Source: Escherichia coli
GTDB taxonomy: Bacteria > Pseudomonadota > Gammaproteobacteria > Enterobacterales > Enterobacteriaceae
Direction: 5' to 3' (one strand)
Assembly (NCBI RefSeq): GCF_044324875.1
Contig: NZ_CP172185.1
DNA: 64,000 nucleotides
Below, in pieces: positions 11,065-20,142 of this stretch. The position numbers and the translations under genes were made by a program. Position 1 is the first letter of the stretch. The number at the start of each line of letters is the position of its first letter. A model generated the notes under the pieces. It was not told the origin of the DNA. It did not search any database and saw nothing but the letters and a program-made list of their open reading frames with translations.

Positions 11065-11378
11065 AACAGTCAATTGTCTCACTGGCGCAAGTCATTCGTT
11101 CGAAAAATGCCGGACCTTACGAACTGGTTTTAGATATTTTATTTAAAACCAAAGAAAACTATGAGCGAGTTAAATCATCAGGGCAATTAACCCCAGAACT
11201 GATTGCGCGCTTATATCATGTTGAACCTGACTTTATTCATCGTATTGTCTGGTTTGATCCTTCTAACGCAGTAAAAATCGTCATGCCACGAGATATTATC
11301 TCCGGGAATGTAGGTGACAATGATGTCTATGGTGCACAGCAACATGCACCTTTATTAAATATGAGTTTCGATTTGTAA
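11061..11378 (+). CDS. small conserved protein, 105 aa, probable partner of the AtuA-like protein (DUF4387-type by recollection)
   Basis: Start overlaps the stop of the preceding ORF (ATGA), indicating translational coupling. Confidence 0.45.
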   Translation: MKQSIVSLAQVIRSKNAGPYELVLDILFKTKENYERVKSSGQLTPELIARLYHVEPDFIHRIVWFDPSNAVKIVMPRDIISGNVGDNDVYGAQQHAPLLNMSFDL

Positions 11379-11461
11379 AAATCCGAATACTTTTAGCCAA
11401 CTGACATCCCGTCACTTATTGCAGTTCAACACTTCAGCTATTTGTAAGGTTGTAATAGCAG

Positions 11462-11512
11462 GTAGATGCCTGAATCTCTATTCAGACATCTACTTCTCCT
11501 GATTCTGATTTA
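11462..11512 (+). terminator. extended hairpin (14-bp stem, one mismatch) followed by a T-rich tract
   Basis: gtagatgcctgaat-ctct-attcagacatctac followed by ttctcctgattctgattt; sits between the small ORF and the symporter gene. Confidence 0.4.
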
Positions 11513-11538
11513 TCGCCGTGCACCTGATGGAGGAAAAA

Positions 11539-12819
11539 ATGAAGAAAATAAGTTTAACCACGATGATTCTTTTGGCACTGGTACTTGGAATGATTATCGG
11601 CGTAGTGCTCAATAACACTGCTTCACCGGAAACCGCAAAACTCTATGCGCAAGAAATATCGATATTCACGACGATTTTCTTACGACTGATAAAAATGATT
11701 ATCGCTCCGTTAGTGGTCTCTACCCTGGTGGTAGGTATAGCTAAAATGGGCGATGCCAAAGCCCTTGGTCGTATTTTTTCTAAAACACTCTTTTTATTTA
11801 TTTGCGCCTCATTGCTGTCAATTGCCTTAGGCTTGATAACAGTAAATTTCTTCATGCCAGGCACAGGAATTAATTTTGTTGCACACGGAGCCGAAACCAC
11901 CGGAGTGGTCGCGTCAGAACCCTTTACGCTAAAAGTATTTATTTCGCATGCTTTCCCCACCAGCATTGTCGATGCCATGGCGCACAATGAAATTTTGCAA
12001 ATCGTAGTGTTCTCAATTTTCCTCGGCTGTAGCCTGACGGCGATTGGCGAGAAAGGCAGCGCCATCGTTCACGCCTTAGATTCGCTGGCACATGCCATGT
12101 TAAAGCTCACTGGCTACGTCATGCTCTTCGCTCCCCTGACCGTATTCGCCGCTATTTCAGCATTGATTGCTGAACGAGGACTGGCAGTTATGGTGAGCGC
12201 CGGGATCTTTATGGGTGAATTTTATTTCACCATGTTGTTACTTTGGGTGCTGCTTATCGGTCTGGCCATCGTTTATGTCGGCCCCTGCATCAGACGCCTG
12301 ACCCGCGCCCTTTCGGAACCCGCTCTGCTGGCATTTACCACATCCAGTTCTGAAGCGGCTTTTCCGGGAACGCTTGAAAAACTGGAGCAATTTGGCGTTT
12401 CCCCCAAAATTGCCAGCTTTGTCTTACCCATTGGCTACTCATTTAATCTCGTTGGATCAATGGCCTACTGCTCCTTCGCCACAGTTTTCATCGCCCAGGC
12501 CTGCAATATCCATTTATCCATCGGTGAGCAAATCACCATGCTGTTGATCCTGATGTTGACCTCGAAAGGAATGGCTGGCGTACCACGCGCCTCAATGGTG
12601 GTTATCGCCGCCACGCTCAACCAGTTCAATATTCCGGAAGCGGGGCTGATCTTGCTGATGGGCGTTGATCCGTTCCTTGATATGGGGCGTTCCGCGACAA
12701 ACGTCATGAGCAACGCAATGGGCGCTGCGATGGTGAGTCGGTGGGAAGGCGAACATTTCGGCGAGGGTTGTCGGGGTAAAGCATTAAAACCCAATGAATC
12801 GAACGTTGCTCTGCCCTGA
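11539..12819 (+). CDS. dicarboxylate/amino acid:cation symporter (DAACS family, GltP-like); probable glutamate or C4/C5-dicarboxylate carrier
   Basis: Multi-pass hydrophobic protein with DAACS-like sequence; start chosen at the ATG 5 nt after a GGAGG (11529..11533). Confidence 0.75.
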   Translation: MKKISLTTMILLALVLGMIIGVVLNNTASPETAKLYAQEISIFTTIFLRLIKMIIAPLVVSTLVVGIAKMGDAKALGRIFSKTLFLFICASLLSIALGLITVNFFMPGTGINFVAHGAETTGVVASEPFTLKVFISHAFPTSIVDAMAHNEILQIVVFSIFLGCSLTAIGEKGSAIVHALDSLAHAMLKLTGYVMLFAPLTVFAAISALIAERGLAVMVSAGIFMGEFYFTMLLLWVLLIGLAIVYVGPCIRRLTRALSEPALLAFTTSSSEAAFPGTLEKLEQFGVSPKIASFVLPIGYSFNLVGSMAYCSFATVFIAQACNIHLSIGEQITMLLILMLTSKGMAGVPRASMVVIAATLNQFNIPEAGLILLMGVDPFLDMGRSATNVMSNAMGAAMVSRWEGEHFGEGCRGKALKPNESNVALP

Positions 12820-12926
12820 GGGGGATCTTAAGCAATCAGAAGCCAATGACTACGCATTTTTATAAGCCGGATCATGAAGTTAGACGGCAATTAAGTAACA
12901 CTAACGTTTAAGGTGAAAAGTGAAAT

Positions 12927-14579
12927 ATGTCCAAACCATTTATCTGGCAAGAACCGTTTCTACAAAATAAAGACGGTACAGAATATACATTAATTAGCGA
13001 TCAACATATTACAGTAACGGAATTAGACGGCGAAGAAGTGATAAAAATCGCTCCTGAAGCATTAACGCTGCTTGCCCGGCAGGCATTTTATGAAGCCTCT
13101 TTTTTCTTACGTTCCGCTCATTTGCAACAGGTCGCCAGCATTCTTAACGATCCGCAGGCCAGTAGTAATGATAAATACGTTGCGTTGCAGTTATTACGTA
13201 ATGCTGAAGTCTCAGCAAAAGGGGTATTACCCAACTGTCAGGATACCGGCACCGCAACTATTGTTGCCAGTAAAGGGCAACAGATATGGACGGGAGGTAA
13301 CGACGCTGAAGCCTTAAGCAAAGGCATTTACAGTACTTTCCAGGAAAATAATCTGCGCTTTTCACAAAATGCGCCGCTGGATATGTATACCGAAGTCAAT
13401 ACGCAAACCAATCTCCCGGCGCAGATTGATATCAGCGCTGTCGCTGGTAATGAGTACCATTTTCTCTGTGTTAATAAAGGGGGCGGCTCCGCCAATAAAG
13501 CCGCACTTTATCAGGAAACCAAATCCTTATTGCAACCAGAAAAACTGACCGCATTTTTAATCGAAAAAATGAAATCGCTGGGCACCGCTGCCTGCCCGCC
13601 TTACCACATCGCCTTTGTCGTCGGAGGGCTTTCAGCCGATCAAACCTTAAAAGTTGCCAAGCTGGCCTCTACGAAATATTACGACAATTTGCCCACCAGC
13701 GGAAACGAGCAGGGACAAGCATTCCGTGATATTGAGCTGGAAAAAGTGTTGCTCGAGGTCAGTCAGCAATTTGGTATTGGTGCGCAATTTGGGGGTAAAT
13801 ATTTCGCTCATGATATTCGCGTCATTCGTCTGCCGCGTCACGGTGGCTCTTGCCCGATAGCTATGACGCTCTCCTGTTCTGCCGATCGCAATATCAAAGC
13901 AAAAATTAACAAGCACGGTATCTGGCTGGAAAAACTCGAACACAATCCGGGGCAATATATTCCAGCCTCACTGCGGGAAGAAAATCACGCGCAACATGTA
14001 CAACTGGATCTAAACCGTCCGTTGCGTGACGTGATGCAGGATCTCGCCAGATTACCGGTAGGCACCCGCGTGTCGTTAAGTGGTCCCATCGTAGTGGCAC
14101 GCGATATCGCCCACGCCAAAATAAAAGCGCGGCTGGATAACGCCGAACCGATGCCGGATTACCTGAAGCATCATATTGTCTATTACGCTGGCCCGGCGAA
14201 AACACCGGAGAACATGGCCTGCGGTTCACTGGGTCCAACCACGGGCGGTCGAATGGACGGTTATGTCGATACCTTCCAGGCGGCTGGCGGCAGTCTGGTG
14301 ATGTTATCGAAAGGTAACCGCAGCCAGCAGGTCACCGATGCCTGTCACAAACATGGTGGCTTCAATCTGGGTAGTATTGGCGGTGCAGCTGCGTTACTGG
14401 CGCAAGAATATGTCAAAAGTCTGCGTTGCCTGGAATACCCGGAGCTGGGTATGGAAGCGGTGTGGATGATGGAAGTGGAAAATCTGCCCGCATTCATCCT
14501 GGTAGATGATAAAGGCAATAATTTCTTTAGTCAGTTTGAGCAGCAACACCGCTGCGCCAGTTGCCCTGCGGGACATTAA
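12927..14579 (+). CDS. fumD: class I fumarate hydratase family protein (FumA/FumB paralog); probable mesaconase (2-methylfumarate hydratase)
   Basis: 550 aa, collinear high similarity to E. coli FumA (...[11 protein letters not shown]..., ...[13 protein letters not shown]..., ...[13 protein letters not shown]...); location in a methylaspartate-pathway cluster; the fumD name is recalled from E. coli O157:H7 work. Confidence 0.8.
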
Positions 14580-14588
14580 GGAAAATGA

Positions 14589-15191
14589 ATGGAAGCGCGA
14601 ATTTCAACTGAACGGCATGTGCAGCGCCAGCAGAAATTGAAGGAACAGGTCGATACGCGCATCGCGGCGGCGATAGAGAAAAAAGGGATTTTGATTGTTT
14701 TCACCGGCAATGGCAAAGGGAAATCCACTGCCGCGTTTGGTACTGTGACGCGCGCGGTGGGTCATGGCAAAACGGTGGGGGTTGCGCAGTACATCAAGGG
14801 GCAATGGGACAACGGCGAATACAACCTTCTCCAGCCGCTGGGGGTTGAGTTTCATATTATGGGAACCGGTTTTACCTGGGAGACACAGAACCGGCAAGCG
14901 GATATCGACGCGGCGAAAGAGGTCTGGTCGGAAAGCAAACGGATGCTGGCTGACAAGCGTTACGACTTAGTGGTGCTTGATGAGCTGACCTATATGCTGG
15001 CTTACCATTATCTGGATACCGAAGAAGTGATCGCTTCTCTGCAAAACCGCCCGGCACAACAAAGTGTCATTGTCACCGGACGCGGTTGCCACAGTCAGAT
15101 ATTAAAAATGGCGGATACGGTCAGCGAAATCCGCCCCGTCAAACATGCTTTTGATAACGGCATTCAGGCCCAGCCGGGTATCGACTGGTAA
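14589..15191 (+). CDS. cob(I)yrinic acid a,c-diamide / cob(I)alamin adenosyltransferase (BtuR/CobA/CobO family)
   Basis: ...GILIVFTGNGKGKSTAAFG...GHGKTVGVAQYIKG...VVLDELTYM...VIVTGRGC...SEIRPVKHAF... is near-collinear with E. coli BtuR. Confidence 0.85.
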   Translation: MEARISTERHVQRQQKLKEQVDTRIAAAIEKKGILIVFTGNGKGKSTAAFGTVTRAVGHGKTVGVAQYIKGQWDNGEYNLLQPLGVEFHIMGTGFTWETQNRQADIDAAKEVWSESKRMLADKRYDLVVLDELTYMLAYHYLDTEEVIASLQNRPAQQSVIVTGRGCHSQILKMADTVSEIRPVKHAFDNGIQAQPGIDW

Positions 15192-15194
15192 TAA

Positions 15195-15226
15195 CTGCGC
15201 CTGGCATCCCGCCAGGCGCAGGTTTT
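15195..15226. terminator. convergent (bidirectional) intrinsic terminator between the adenosyltransferase gene and the LysR gene
   Basis: ctgcgcctggc-atccc-gccaggcgcag followed by gtttta on the + strand; both stop codons abut the hairpin. Confidence 0.6.
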
Positions 15227-16130
15227 ACATCTCCTGCGGTACAACCGATTTCGCCAGCAACCATTCACGAAATTGCTGCAAGTGCGGTGAGTCAGACTTC
15301 TCTTCCTGCCACGTCATAATAAAACGATTACCGGTACGAATAGGCACATCACAGGGGATCACCATATCGCCACTATCCAAATCATGTTGAATAGCGAAAC
15401 GTGGTAACAGCGCCACGCCGAGATTAGAGCGCACGGCGGCAATCAGCATTGAAAGCAAATCGAAACGTGGTCCGTTGTTGACCAGCGGACTGCTAACGCC
15501 AGATAAGGCAAACCACTCTTCCCAGCCAGTAATACGGGTACTTTGATGCAGAAGTGGTAACTCTGTAAGCAGTTCTGCCACTGACAGTTTTTGATCGGAC
15601 ATTGCAAGCAAACTGCCGCTGCATACCGGCAAAATCTCCTCATCAAAGAGATATTCTACTTCCGCCCAGGGCGCGCAAAAATTTTCGCGCATAATGACAG
15701 CATCGTACTCCCGATTAAGAAAATCGCCGTTATTAGCTAAAGAGTGAATATTAACAATAATATCGGGATGTAACTTTGTGAATTCATGTAAATTTGGGAT
15801 TAACCAGTGGGTACTAAACGTAGGATTCACGGCAAGTTCAATAACCTGAACCGTAGGCTGCCAGGTCATAATGGTATTGGTATCGCGTTCCAGCTTATTT
15901 AATGTTTCTTTTACTATCCCCAGGTAATACTTCCCTGCATCATTAAGAAAAATACGTTTTTTAGAGTGTGAAAATAACGGAGTATGTAAAAATTCCTCCA
16001 GCGCACTCACTTGTCTGAATACTGCACTTTGGGTCAACGCTAACTCCTCTGCCGCTTTGGTATAACTTTCATGACGTGCGACGACCTCAAAAGTCACCAG
16101 CAGCTCCGTTTTAGGTATTTTTCCTCGCAT
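15225..16130 (-). CDS. LysR-family transcriptional regulator
   Basis: N-terminal HTH (...FEVVARHESYTKAAEELALTQSAVFRQVSALEEFL...) and typical about 300-aa length. Confidence 0.85.
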   Translation of the reverse strand: MRGKIPKTELLVTFEVVARHESYTKAAEELALTQSAVFRQVSALEEFLHTPLFSHSKKRIFLNDAGKYYLGIVKETLNKLERDTNTIMTWQPTVQVIELAVNPTFSTHWLIPNLHEFTKLHPDIIVNIHSLANNGDFLNREYDAVIMRENFCAPWAEVEYLFDEEILPVCSGSLLAMSDQKLSVAELLTELPLLHQSTRITGWEEWFALSGVSSPLVNNGPRFDLLSMLIAAVRSNLGVALLPRFAIQHDLDSGDMVIPCDVPIRTGNRFIMTWQEEKSDSPHLQQFREWLLAKSVVPQEM

Positions 16131-16693
16131 AATGCCGTCCCTTAAAAATAGTTTAAACCATCAAAAATACATTACTTATTACGAAGTAATGGTAACCAAA
16201 GCAGCAATAAATAATTTATAAGAATCATGATTGACATTTATAACCCAGTAAGCCTGGCGTGACAAATATCTTAATCAGATAATAATAATCCGAAAAGCAC
16301 AGCGCCTTTCGAATTATCCGGAATCACATTAAGTGAAAATTATTAAATTGATATCATTTATCATATCTGTGGATATTATGATAAACAATCAACAAAGATT
16401 TTATTTTTGATTTATAGCATATCCCTCTAAGAATTTTTGCGATGCTGCAATATCCGGGGTAAAGACCCGATCCTGGCTGACAAATGGCACGACTTGACGA
16501 TAAGCGGTGAACATCGCTTTTGTTGATTTACTTAACGCTACGGTCAAACGCTGGGAAGCCAGTGCATCAGGTAACGATTCGAAATTCGCCGTCGTTCTTA
16601 TTCGTGGCTTGCGGTCGGTTGCGGCAATCCACAGTGGCTGTGGTCATGCAGTCAAGCCAGCGGTCAGATTTCGACCGTGGTTAACATTTAAGG

Positions 16694-16800
16694 CATAAAA
16701 AAGGCCATCATACGATGGCCAACCATGTCGAAACCGACAACCCTTCGCCATTCCTGTAGAGGGAAGCGGCGAGGGCTATTTCTTATTACAGATATTTATT
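16694..16800 (-). ncRNA. sdhX: SdhX (RybD) sRNA derived from the sucD 3' UTR, with its intrinsic terminator
   Basis: Hairpin ggccatcgtatgatggcc followed by a U-run on the minus strand about 75 nt after the sucD stop; SdhX is known to be processed from this 3' end. Exact 5' end not determinable here. Confidence 0.5.
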
Positions 16801-17665
16801 TCAGAACAGTTTTCAGTGCTTCACCGATATCCGCCAGGCTGCGAACGGTTTTCACGCCTGCGGCTTCCAGAGCAGCGAATTTCTCATCCGCAGTCCCTTT
16901 ACCACCGGCAATGATGGCACCCGCGTGGCCCATACGTTTGCCTTTCGGCGCAGTCACACCAGCGATGTAACCCACAACAGGCTTGGTAACGTGCTCTTTG
17001 ATGTACGCAGCCGCTTCTTCTTCAGCGCTACCGCCGATCTCACCGATCATCACGATCGCTTCGGTCTGCGGATCTTTTTCGAACATTTCGAGAATGTCGA
17101 TAAAGTTAGAGCCAGGGATCGGATCGCCGCCGATACCAACACAGGTCGACTGACCGAAACCGTAATCCGTGGTCTGTTTAACCGCTTCATAGGTCAGTGT
17201 ACCGGAACGGGAAACGATACCCACTTTACCCGGTTTGTGAATGTGACCCGGCTGGATACCGATTTTGCATTCACCCGGAGTGATAACGCCTGGGCAGTTC
17301 GGGCCGATCATACGAACGCCAGCTTCGTCCAGTTTCACTTTCACAGTCAGCATATCCAGCGTCGGGATGCCTTCAGTGATGGTGATAATCAGTTTGATGC
17401 CTGCATCGATGGCTTCCAGAATGGAGTCTTTGCAGAACGGTGCTGGTACGTAGATAACAGAAGCGGTAGCGCCAGTAGCAGCAACAGCTTCACGCACGGT
17501 GTTGAACACCGGCAGGCCGAGGTGGGTGGTGCCGCCTTTACCTGGGGTTACGCCGCCAACCATTTTAGTGCCGTATGCAATGGCCTGTTCTGAGTGGAAA
17601 GTCCCCTGGCTACCGGTAAAGCCCTGGCAGATAACCTTGGTGTTTTTATCAATTAAAATGGACAT
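16796..17665 (-). CDS. sucD: succinyl-CoA synthetase alpha subunit
   Basis: 289-aa [42 protein letters not shown]... Confidence 0.95.
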
Positions 17666-18831
17666 TATTTCCCCTCCACTGCGGCAACAACCTGCTGAGC
17701 TGCATCCGTCAGACCTTTTGCTGCAATAATATTCAGGCCGCTGTCAGCCAGTTTCTTCGCGCCGAGTTCGGCGTTGTTACCTTCCAGACGTACCACGACC
17801 GGTACGTTAACACCCACTTCCGCTACCGCGCCGATGATACCGTCAGCGATCAGGTCGCAACGAACGATACCGCCGAAGATGTTAACCAGAACGGCTTTCA
17901 CTTTGTCGTCAGAGAGGATGATTTTGAATGCTTCGGTTACACGTTCTTTGGTTGCGCCGCCGCCAACGTCCAGGAAGTTAGCCGGTTCGCCGCCGTGCAG
18001 TTTAACGATGTCCATCGTACCCATCGCCAGACCTGCGCCGTTAACCATACAACCGATGTTACCGTCCAGCGCAACGTAGTTCAGTTCCCACTGTGCAGCC
18101 TGTGCTTCACGCGGATCTTCCTGTGACTGGTCACGCATTTCGCGCAGATCAGGCTGGCGGAACAGTGCGTTGCCGTCAGCACCCAGTTTGCCGTCGAGGC
18201 AAATCAGATCGCCCTGTTTAGTGATGACCAGCGGGTTGATTTCGATCAGCGCCAGGTCGCGCTCCAGGAAAATGGTCGCCAGGCCCATGAAGATTTTGGT
18301 GAACTGCTGAACCAGTTTACCTTCCAGACCCAGTTTGAACGCCAGCTCGCGTCCCTGATACGGCATCGGGCCAGTCAGCGGATCAAGCGCAACTTTATGG
18401 ATCAGGTGCGGAGTTTCTTCCGCCACTTTTTCGATTTCCACGCCGCCTTCGGTGGAGGCCATAAAGACCACACGACGGGAACTACGGTCAACAACGGCAC
18501 CGAGATACAGCTCTTTAGCGATATCGGTCGCTGCTTCAACCAGAATCTGGTTAACCGGTTGGCCATTGGCATCTGTTTGATACGTTACCAGACGCTTGCC
18601 CAGCCAGTTTTCTGCAAAAGCACGGATGTCTTCTTTGCTGTTTACCACTTTCACACCGCCCGCTTTACCGCGGCCACCAGCGTGAACCTGACATTTCACT
18701 ACCCACGGACCGGCACCGATTTTTGAAGCGGCTTCTTCTGCTTCGCGCGGAGTAGTACAGGCATAACCCACCGGTGCTGGTAAGCCATAGCGGGCAAAAA
18801 GTTGTTTTGCCTGATATTCATGTAAGTTCAT
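17665..18831 (-). CDS. sucC: succinyl-CoA synthetase beta subunit
   Basis: 388-aa [23 protein letters not shown]...; start overlaps sucD. Confidence 0.95.
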
Positions 18832-18924
18832 GTGTTCTGTCCATCCTTCAGTAATCGTTATCTTTTAAACCGTAGACCGACACCCTATCCACGTCGGTCT
18901 ACAGTGCAGGTGAAGCTTAAACTA

Positions 18925-20142
18925 CTACACGTCCAGCAGCAGACGAGTCGGATCTTCCAGCAACTCTTTGATCGTTACCAGGAAGCCCACGGATTCGCGA
19001 CCATCGATCAGACGGTGATCGTAGGACAGCGCCAGGTACATCATCGGCAGGATCTCAACCTGACCATTCACCGCCATCGGACGATCTTTGATAGCGTGCA
19101 TACCCAGAATTGCGCTCTGCGGCGGGTTGATGATCGGCGTAGACATCAGGGAACCGAACACACCACCATTGGTGATGGTGAAGTTACCACCGGTCAGATC
19201 TTCAACCGTCAGCTTGCCGTCACGGCCTTTAACTGCCAGCTCTTTGATTTTCTTCTCGATGTCTGCCATGCCTAGGGTATCGACATCACGCAGTACCGGC
19301 GTCACCAGGCCGCGCGGCGTAGAAACCGCCATGCTGACGTCGAAATAGTTGTGGTAAACCACATCATCGCCGTCGATAGAAGCATTCACTTCCGGGTAAC
19401 GTTTCAGGGCTTCAACCACCGCTTTCACGTAGAAGGACATAAAGCCCAGACGGATGCCGTGGCGTTTTTCAAACGCTTCACCGTACTGCTTACGCAGATC
19501 CATAATCGGCTTCATATTGACTTCGTTGAACGTGGTCAGCATGGCGGTGGAGTTTTTCGCTTCCAGCAGACGCTCTGCCACACGCTTACGCAGGCGAGTC
19601 ATCGGCACACGTTTTTCGCTACGTGCAGCCAGAGCCGGTTGCGCCGCCGGAGCAGCCGCTGCCGGAGCAGACTCTTTCGCCGGGGCTTTCGCCAGATGTT
19701 TTTCCACATCTTCACGAGTCAGACGACCACCCACACCGGTGCCTTTAATGGCGCTGGCGTCGAGGTTGTGTTCAGCCAAGAGTCGGCGGATCGCCGGGCT
19801 TAACGCATCGTTGTTTTGCTCTTCCAGAGACGCCTGCTGGCGTTGCGCCGGAGTGGACGCTTTCTCTTCAGATTTGGCGCTGGTTTCTTTACCCGCGCTG
19901 TTGCCTTCACGCAGGCGACCAAGGATCTGACGAGACGTTACCGTTGTACCTTCATCTTCCAGAACCGCATCCAGAATGCCGTCTGCTGATGCCGGTACTT
20001 CCAGTACCACTTTGTCAGTTTCGATTTCTACCAGCACTTCATCACGTACGACTGCGTCGCCGGGTTTTTTATGCCAGGTTGCGACGGTGGCATCGGCTAC
20101 GGATTCAGGCAGGTCAGGGACCAGAATATCTACGCTACTCAT
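18925..20142 (-). CDS. sucB: 2-oxoglutarate dehydrogenase E2 (dihydrolipoyl transsuccinylase)
   Basis: 405-aa ORF with lipoyl domain ([26 protein letters not shown]...) and C-terminal acyltransferase region. Confidence 0.95.

Follow-up and report, generated by a model that had tools for sequence, protein, structure and literature searches.

The deletional bias of bacterial genomes leaves behind pseudogene remnants and deletion scars. The hut operons of enterobacteria and pseudomonads comprise hutH, hutU, hutI, and hutG, and to our knowledge Escherichia coli is usually regarded as an organism without hut. In E. coli K-12, the chromosomal slot between sucD and cydA is occupied by mngR-mngA-mngB. 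On the sucD side of this slot lies the small RNA SdhX (RybD), which derives from the sucD 3′ UTR and for which Miyakoshi et al. (2019, PMC6393394) gave the seed UUCGACAUGGU (core CGACAU).

Here we describe the 665-bp interval between a LysR-family gene and sucD (positions 16131–16795) in a 64,000-nucleotide stretch of E. coli DNA, hereafter the window, and compare it with a population set of 5,426 complete E. coli genomes. The interval is 100% identical to the corresponding sequence of strain WP4-S18-ESBL-07. We conclude with high confidence that it is a composite, in which a spacer associated with a hut operon is followed by a deletion scar of a lyase gene and rtcB and then by SdhX. The segment at 16401–16698 is an ordinary pseudogene remnant and deletion scar next to a known small RNA, not a new kind of element. 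A search of the literature on the sucD-cydA locus and on hut in E. coli yielded no description of this scar, which is previously unremarked.

Layout of the interval between LysR and sucD

The features of the interval are listed in Table 1, together with the blocks that match the hut-bearing strain ECONIH1. The GC content is 0.276 at 16140–16440 and 0.51 at 16440–16690, compared to 0.507 in the whole window; when the boundaries are drawn by homology, the GC-poor part (16131–16400) has 29% GC and the GC-normal part (16401–16698) has 47%. The division into an AT-rich and a GC-normal half, proposed in a preliminary description of this DNA, is thus borne out. The same is true of its statements that there is no convincing open reading frame (the ORF listing contains none longer than 63 aa within 16131–16795) and that the interval ends at the sucD/SdhX terminator, which lies on the minus strand at 16720–16703 and consists of GGCCATCGTATGATGGCC followed by TTTTTT.

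Table 1. Coordinates of the features in and around the interval, and of the blocks shared with ECONIH1 (locus L006; AR_0372 is locus L012). Positions are those of the window unless a locus is named.
Feature	Coordinates	Strand	Details
LysR-family gene	15225–16130	minus	Pfam HTH_1 and LysR_substrate
LysR leader with Shine-Dalgarno-like GGGA	16131–16143	minus	three-way comparison of window, ECONIH1, and AR_0372
AT-rich spacer	16144–16400	minus	27.6% GC; 87% identical to and collinear with L006 14014–14270
hutH-like (HAL/PAL/TAL family) ammonia-lyase tail	16401–16538	minus	last 45 codons and stop (16401–16403); blastn 86% to L006 14271–14408
Internal lyase fragment	16534–16594	minus	61 bp; codons ~377–397 of 556; blastn L006 14752–14812, 87%, E = 2e-13
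Internal RtcB-family fragment	16598–16654	plus	57 bp; codons ~376–394 of 465; blastn L006 23906–23962, 91%; L012 9001–9057, 93%
RtcB-family 3′ end	16657–16698	plus	last 13 codons and TAA stop (16696–16698); 96–98% identity to L003 and L006
Junction of variable region and conserved core	16689–16694		rtcB end ...GTTTAAGG joined to CATAAAAAAGGCC; microhomology TAAG
SdhX (RybD), sRNA from the sucD 3′ UTR	16695–16795	minus	seed UUCGACAUGGU 16722–16732; stem 16703–16720; U-run 16697–16702
sucD	16796–17665	minus	borders the interval opposite LysR
Shared block: LysR 5′ end, spacer, lyase tail	16001–16538		L006 13871–14408, 89% (blastn)
Shared block: lyase codons ~377–397	16534–16594		L006 14752–14812, 87%
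Shared block: rtcB codons ~376–394	16598–16654		L006 23906–23962, 91%
Shared block: rtcB tail, SdhX, sucD	16657–16900		L006 24138–24381, 97.5%

SdhX, which makes up the last 101 bp of the interval, shares 95–97% identity with its counterparts in K-12-type and other E. coli genomes; the last 101–107 bp of the interval have a megablast match in 5,416 of the 5,426 genomes. An Rfam scan of 14000–19000 at E ≤ 1 gave no match, SdhX included, and the identification was therefore made from the seed and sequence, the terminator, the position, and the 95–97% identity. Judged by these features of its sequence, SdhX is intact. The stop codon of the rtcB remnant overlaps the A-run complementary to the SdhX U-run.

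The preliminary description had further suggested that the GC-normal half could be a relic of the gene present here in other strains (mngR in K-12) and would mark the insertion breakpoint. More broadly, it might stem from mngR or other K-12 DNA at the point where a K-12-like chromosome received the island. In 3,884 of the 5,426 genomes mngR is present and convergent with sucD, and the few bases that follow its stop codon in those genomes (CATAAAAAAGG) are retained in the window from 16694 on, as would be expected under this proposal. However, the best tblastn match of MngR to 16001–16900 has E = 0.51, and in the megablast search of 16131–16795 against the population set the K-12-type match begins at 16689, at the stop codon of the convergent mngR. 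Blastn likewise gave homology to K-12-type genomes from 16689 on only. Since the K-12 match starts at 16689 and the translated search with MngR is empty, the GC-normal half is not K-12 DNA. Fragments of a lyase gene and of rtcB account for all of 16401–16698. This lack of similarity refutes the mngR hypothesis, to which we attach practically no probability, and the junction of core and variable DNA lies not at 16440 but at ~16689–16694, against the SdhX terminator. The more general idea that the segment is a relic of a gene found at this site in other strains has held up, with the lyase gene and rtcB of 145 genomes in place of mngR.

Remnants of a hut/rtcB block

A sensitive blastn search with 16131–16660 aligned 88% of this segment, with an identity of ~87%, to genomes such as ECONIH1, where the match consists of two pieces spread over 812 bp that lie under a gene annotated as “HAL/PAL/TAL family ammonia-lyase.” The intact gene encodes 556 aa and belongs to Pfam Lyase_aromatic (PF00221, E = 4e-123). 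The translation of the lyase tail in the window, ALSKSTKAMFTAYRQVVPFVSQDRVFTPDIAASQKFLEGYAINQK followed by a stop, agrees with the ECONIH1 protein at 40 of 45 residues and differs at 5. The tail is fused in frame to the internal lyase fragment, so that the joined sequence reads TANFESLPDALASQRLTVA followed by LSKSTK, with a loss of 348 bp (116 codons) between the two and an AA(C/T)GC microhomology at the junction. About 66 of the 556 codons are left, the N-terminal 376 codons are gone, and no complete reading frame exists. Database fragments of 37–64 aa from E. coli and Shigella dysenteriae match the lyase tail, and some of them are named histidine ammonia-lyase.

The plus-strand part of the scar comes from rtcB. 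By tblastn, YSWLAVGCGNPQWLWSCS (16599–16652) corresponds to RtcB residues 376–393 with E = 8e-13, the local alignment extending to 16667 and residue 398, and genome-wide the matches of this fragment fall exclusively in genes annotated as RtcB family protein. The translation of the rtcB tail, PAVRFRPWLTFKA followed by a stop, equals that of the intact protein (tblastn E = 1e-6), whose gene is assigned to Pfam PF01139 with E = 1e-95. A third class of genomes, represented by LD67-1, has a match that starts at 16657, under the 3′ end of a gene annotated as RtcB family protein.

The arrangement from which these fragments derive is preserved in ECONIH1. There, cydA is followed by two hypothetical genes, glmS-glmL-glmE, methylaspartate ammonia-lyase, an AtuA-family gene, DUF4387, a symporter, fumarase, and cobO, and beyond cobO by LysR (minus strand), a 270-bp spacer, the lyase gene (minus), hutG, hutI, hutD, a permease gene, hutU (minus), a 769-bp spacer, rtcB (plus), SdhX, and sucD. 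The gene order in LD67-1 is the same, and Pfam assignments of the intact genes include Lyase_aromatic, urocanase, and RtcB. The four shared blocks in Table 1 are collinear and have the same orientation in the window and in ECONIH1, with the 298 bp at 16401–16698 corresponding to 9,909 bp of ECONIH1. Three segments, of ~348, ~9,093, and ~175 bp, are absent from the window. The largest, at 16594/16598, removed the rest of the lyase gene, hutG, hutI, hutD, the permease gene, hutU, the spacer, and the first approximately three quarters of rtcB; the 175-bp loss, at 16654/16657, has a CCAGCG repeat at its junction. These end points and sizes are approximate because the reference is 13% diverged and no intact copy of the scar haplotype was found. 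At two junctions there are “fillers” of 2–3 bp, for which the deletion model does not account.

The presence of internal and terminal fragments of two genes in their native order and orientation indicates that the change was a deletion and not an insertion. The opposite polarity, with the scar type being ancestral and the hut operon being inserted later to produce the full type, could draw on the behavior of the hut block as a replaceable unit, given that genomes of the type represented by AR_0372 have LysR and rtcB without hut and with an unrelated spacer. This history is effectively refuted, as no insertion could turn such fragments, which in the window are also joined in frame, back into complete genes; moreover, both other island types have an intact rtcB. 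We see next to no chance that it is correct.

Nor does the scar appear to be kept for a function of its own, although a few observations could be read that way. An 84-aa minus-strand “hypothetical protein” is annotated in strain EC1, a 63-aa plus-strand ORF extends over 16507–16698, PGAP calls a coding sequence here in some genomes, the two lyase fragments are fused in frame, and the sequence is present in 835 genomes. Against this, the ORFs are the old lyase and rtcB reading frames, the minus-strand ORF that is open in some strains spans only 48 aa in the window, the Rfam scan gave no match here either, and a scar in E. whittamii retains other fragments. A functional small protein or RNA in the GC-normal half is thus very improbable in our estimate. 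The degree of fragmentation suggests that the scar at 16401–16698 is most likely inert.

The junction with the conserved core was compared side by side in the window, ECONIH1, K-12, LF82, E. whittamii, and AR_0372. The rtcB gene ends in ...GTTTAAGGGGTAA in the AR_0372 type and in ...GTTTAAGG joined to CATAAAAAAGGCC in the ECONIH1 and window types. In K-12-type genomes CATAAAAAAGGCC comes after the mngR stop codon, and in the AR_0372 type GATAAG followed directly by CATAAAAAAGGCC spans the mngR stop region. The continuation of the rtcB end into post-mngR sequence places the true boundary between core and variable DNA at ~16689–16694, against the SdhX terminator. The junction of rtcB and SdhX itself looks like an older deletion of mngRAB at the TAAG microhomology.

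Taken together, these comparisons lead us to propose the following history. In the ancestor, the methylaspartate (glutamate-fermentation) island would have been accompanied by LysR, the hut operon, and rtcB, the last of these lying right next to the SdhX terminator as a result of the earlier loss of mngRAB at TAAG. The hut half would then have been lost, ~9.6 kb in at least three deletions, leaving a lineage with the methylaspartate half only. The microhomologies visible at two of the junctions may have mediated the deletions.

Locus types and the divergent scar haplotype

Five configurations of the sucD-cydA slot were distinguished. The K-12 type (A) has mngR-mngA-mngB. The AR_0372 type (B; ~155 genomes by subtraction) has, starting from sucD, mngRAB, rtcB, a 590-bp spacer, a divergent LysR, and the methylaspartate island. 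The ECONIH1 type (C) has the full LysR-hut-rtcB-SdhX-sucD arrangement, with an intact hut block between LysR and sucD in 145 of the 5,426 genomes, and the window represents the same arrangement with the scar (type D). LF82 has only a gene for a TPR protein (type E). The whole 665-bp interval is found at ≥95% identity in 835 of the 5,426 genomes by megablast, O157:H7 included.

In the methylaspartate island of the window itself (~5000–16130; L001 5023–18000) the genes of the methylaspartate route look complete, comprising the glmS/L/E mutase, methylaspartate ammonia-lyase, the AtuA-family and DUF4387 genes, a class I fumarase-like hydratase, the symporter, and cobO. On the other side of the locus, the spacer between sucB (odhB) and sucC measures 93 bp in the window (18832–18924), 274 bp in MC4100 (L002 8143–8416), and 261 bp in LF82 (L004 10138–10398). 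An indel of ~170–180 bp is thus polymorphic inside the suc operon and may correspond to a REP-type element.

The window and ECONIH1 differ by 1–2% across the island and the suc genes and by 14% in 16201–16600, as measured by a gapped identity profile. Over this divergent stretch ECONIH1, EC17GD31, and LD67-1 are identical to each other, and across the spacer and the lyase fragments none of the 145 hut-bearing genomes reaches 90% identity to the window (~87% in the five listed). Among the substitutions in relic codons, 25 of 35 are at third positions (p = 5e-6 by the binomial test), and there are no stops or frameshifts inside the relic fragments. The third-position bias and the lack of stops indicate that the hut/rtcB allele of the scar diverged while it was still coding. 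With E. whittamii as a third sequence, most of the change is assigned to the window branch, where the lyase tail has changed at 16 sites (10 at third positions and 6 at positions 1–2), and the spacer has changed at 21 sites compared to 8 and 8 on the other two branches.

An alternative is that the 13–14% divergence of 16144–16654 reflects neutral decay after the deletion and not a separate haplotype that existed before it. The relics are noncoding and neutral evolution is expected of them, 6 of the 16 changes on the window branch are at codon positions 1–2, 5 of the 45 residues of the lyase tail have changed, and an intact copy of the scar haplotype was not found in the searches made. However, the third-position bias is also seen on the window branch alone, the fragments are free of internal stops and frameshifts, and the start of the divergent tract coincides, to within a few bases, with the edge of the hut-associated spacer. 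In addition, the scar copies are ≥99% alike in most of the 835 genomes, which indicates little change since the deletion. We therefore consider decay an unlikely source of the divergence as a whole, while some decay after the deletion may have contributed. The scar would thus descend from a hut/rtcB haplotype ~13% diverged from the known intact E. coli alleles.

No intact parent of this haplotype turned up in the E. coli population set of 5,426. When a single genome from each species was scanned with degenerate codons, only the E. whittamii scar and a contig labeled Citrobacter that is identical to ECONIH1 were recovered, and a protein search with the 45-aa lyase tail returned only short fragments, this search not being exhaustive, as it also missed the known ECONIH1 protein. 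The contig in question, from the metagenome-assembled genome “Citrobacter sp.” HRGM_Genome_0066 (DXKH01000067.1, L010), matches ECONIH1 at 100% identity along 2,906 bp spanning LysR, the spacer, and the lyase gene and is probably a mis-binned E. coli contig. In strain SBF22 (L008 1371–1908), a genome of the scar type, the 5′ end of LysR is identical to that of the hut-bearing haplotype, the spacer is intermediate (92–93% identical to each haplotype), and the lyase relic is 98.6% like that of the window. This combination identifies SBF22 as a recombinant with a breakpoint inside the AT-rich spacer.

Loss of the block is not confined to the window lineage. E. whittamii Sa2BVA5 (NZ_JACSQI010000018.1, L011 1–1100) has an independent scar of the hut/rtcB block beside SdhX and sucD with other cut points; what survives is 315 bp from the 3′ end of the lyase gene, a hutU piece of 133 bp, part of the hutU-rtcB spacer, and the final 115 bp of rtcB. 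This allele shares 95% identity with ECONIH1 but only 87% with the window. In LD67-1 (L007 1779–3448) the hutH-like lyase is annotated as two coding sequences of 198 bp and 1,473 bp, which suggests a frameshift and a hut block that is decaying where it is still present. The E. whittamii scar and the split lyase of LD67-1 together indicate that the hut/rtcB half is repeatedly being lost.

The region upstream of LysR also differs between the island types. The 13 bp of the LysR leader are the only upstream part common to all island configurations: in the comparison of the window, ECONIH1, and AR_0372 homology ends ~13 bp upstream of the LysR ATG, while the LysR gene is 98–99% identical between the AR_0372 type and the ECONIH1 and window types. 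The segment 16131–16400 is homologous to the 270-bp spacer that extends from the stop codon of the hutH-like lyase to the LysR start in hut-bearing genomes, and 16144–16400 bears no relation to the 590-bp spacer between LysR and rtcB in AR_0372-type genomes. Because homology stops so close to the ATG, the AT-rich half travels with the hut block and is not the sole possible upstream region of LysR. In the scar type it is now the only one, and it presumably carries the LysR promoter. What supports the earlier designation of this segment as promoter-like is its AT-richness; a scan for sigma-70 consensus sites found two, the number expected by chance (2.0 from shuffled sequences), both on the plus strand and none on the minus strand.

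A palindrome, CATTACTT-N6-AAGTAATG, is located at 16170–16191 in the AT-rich spacer and is a candidate LysR operator (autoregulatory site); its arms are conserved between the window and ECONIH1 despite the 13% divergence, and it is absent upstream of the AR_0372-type LysR. Two further elements were discarded. The inverted repeat at 16357–16385, considered as a hut terminator or a LysR box, has arms that are not kept in ECONIH1 and was treated as a chance occurrence in AT-rich DNA, and an apparent plus-strand terminator at 16502–16519 falls within the lyase fragment and is not preserved in ECONIH1.

A divergent neighbor across a spacer is the classical arrangement of LysR-type regulators and their targets. 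In AR_0372 (L012 6382–9274) and in L013, LysR and an intact rtcB are divergent across the AT-rich 590-bp spacer, with mngB-mngA-mngR between rtcB and sucD. On the basis of this arrangement, rtcB might be the original target of LysR. In the scar type, the sdh-suc operon lies upstream of LysR at a distance of 565 bp and in the same orientation, with the SdhX terminator alone between them. The sdh-suc operon is highly expressed, and read-through from it into LysR is conceivable. It is tempting to speculate that LysR has been rewired, its native 590-bp upstream region having been swapped for hut-associated DNA before the 9.6-kb deletion, so that the regulator next to the glutamate-fermentation island became coupled to transcription of the TCA cycle through read-through of the SdhX terminator or through the AT-rich spacer. 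A related speculation is that the scar haplotype goes back to a hut block that entered the LysR-rtcB slot a second time, independently of the first, which would make the slot a recurrent site of cassette exchange. We give these ideas little credence at present.

These results correct the map of the sucD-cydA slot, a common variable locus of E. coli. The methylaspartate island was formerly accompanied by rtcB and by a hut operon leading from histidine to glutamate, and ~85% of the island carriers without mngRAB have lost the hut half, O157:H7 among them (835 genomes with the scar compared to 145 with the intact block). The junctions at 16534–16538, 16594/16598, and 16654/16657 provide a simple PCR or sequence marker for this loss. 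The full island joined to hut would feed histidine into glutamate fermentation, and we accordingly predict a difference in phenotype, with histidine catabolism supplying this pathway in the 145 full genomes as opposed to the scar type.

Comparison with known systems

The locus occupies the same chromosomal slot as mngR-mngA-mngB of K-12, where mngR converges on sucD and ends, with its stop codon, right at the SdhX terminator, but the window keeps nothing of mngR except the few bases after its stop codon. SdhX agrees with the description in PMC6393394 in its position directly after the sucD stop codon, in its seed, and in its Rho-independent terminator. It differs from K-12 in its surroundings, with the rtcB tail beyond the terminator in place of mngR.

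The intact block resembles known hut operons in that it encodes a Lyase_aromatic enzyme and a urocanase by Pfam, as well as an imidazolonepropionase and a formimidoylglutamase by RefSeq annotation. Unlike in those operons, the 556-aa lyase is mostly named “HAL/PAL/TAL family” by PGAP and not hutH, histidine being its putative substrate, and the block additionally has HutD and a permease, whereas hutC is not annotated. Of all this, the window keeps just the 66 lyase codons.

As a deletion scar, the locus follows a known pattern: fragments of formerly adjacent genes remain in order after several deletions, there are short sequence matches at two of the junctions, and the result is fixed in a large clade. 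It differs from known scars in that its haplotype is ~13% diverged from all intact alleles found, and in that E. whittamii has lost this block in a separate event.
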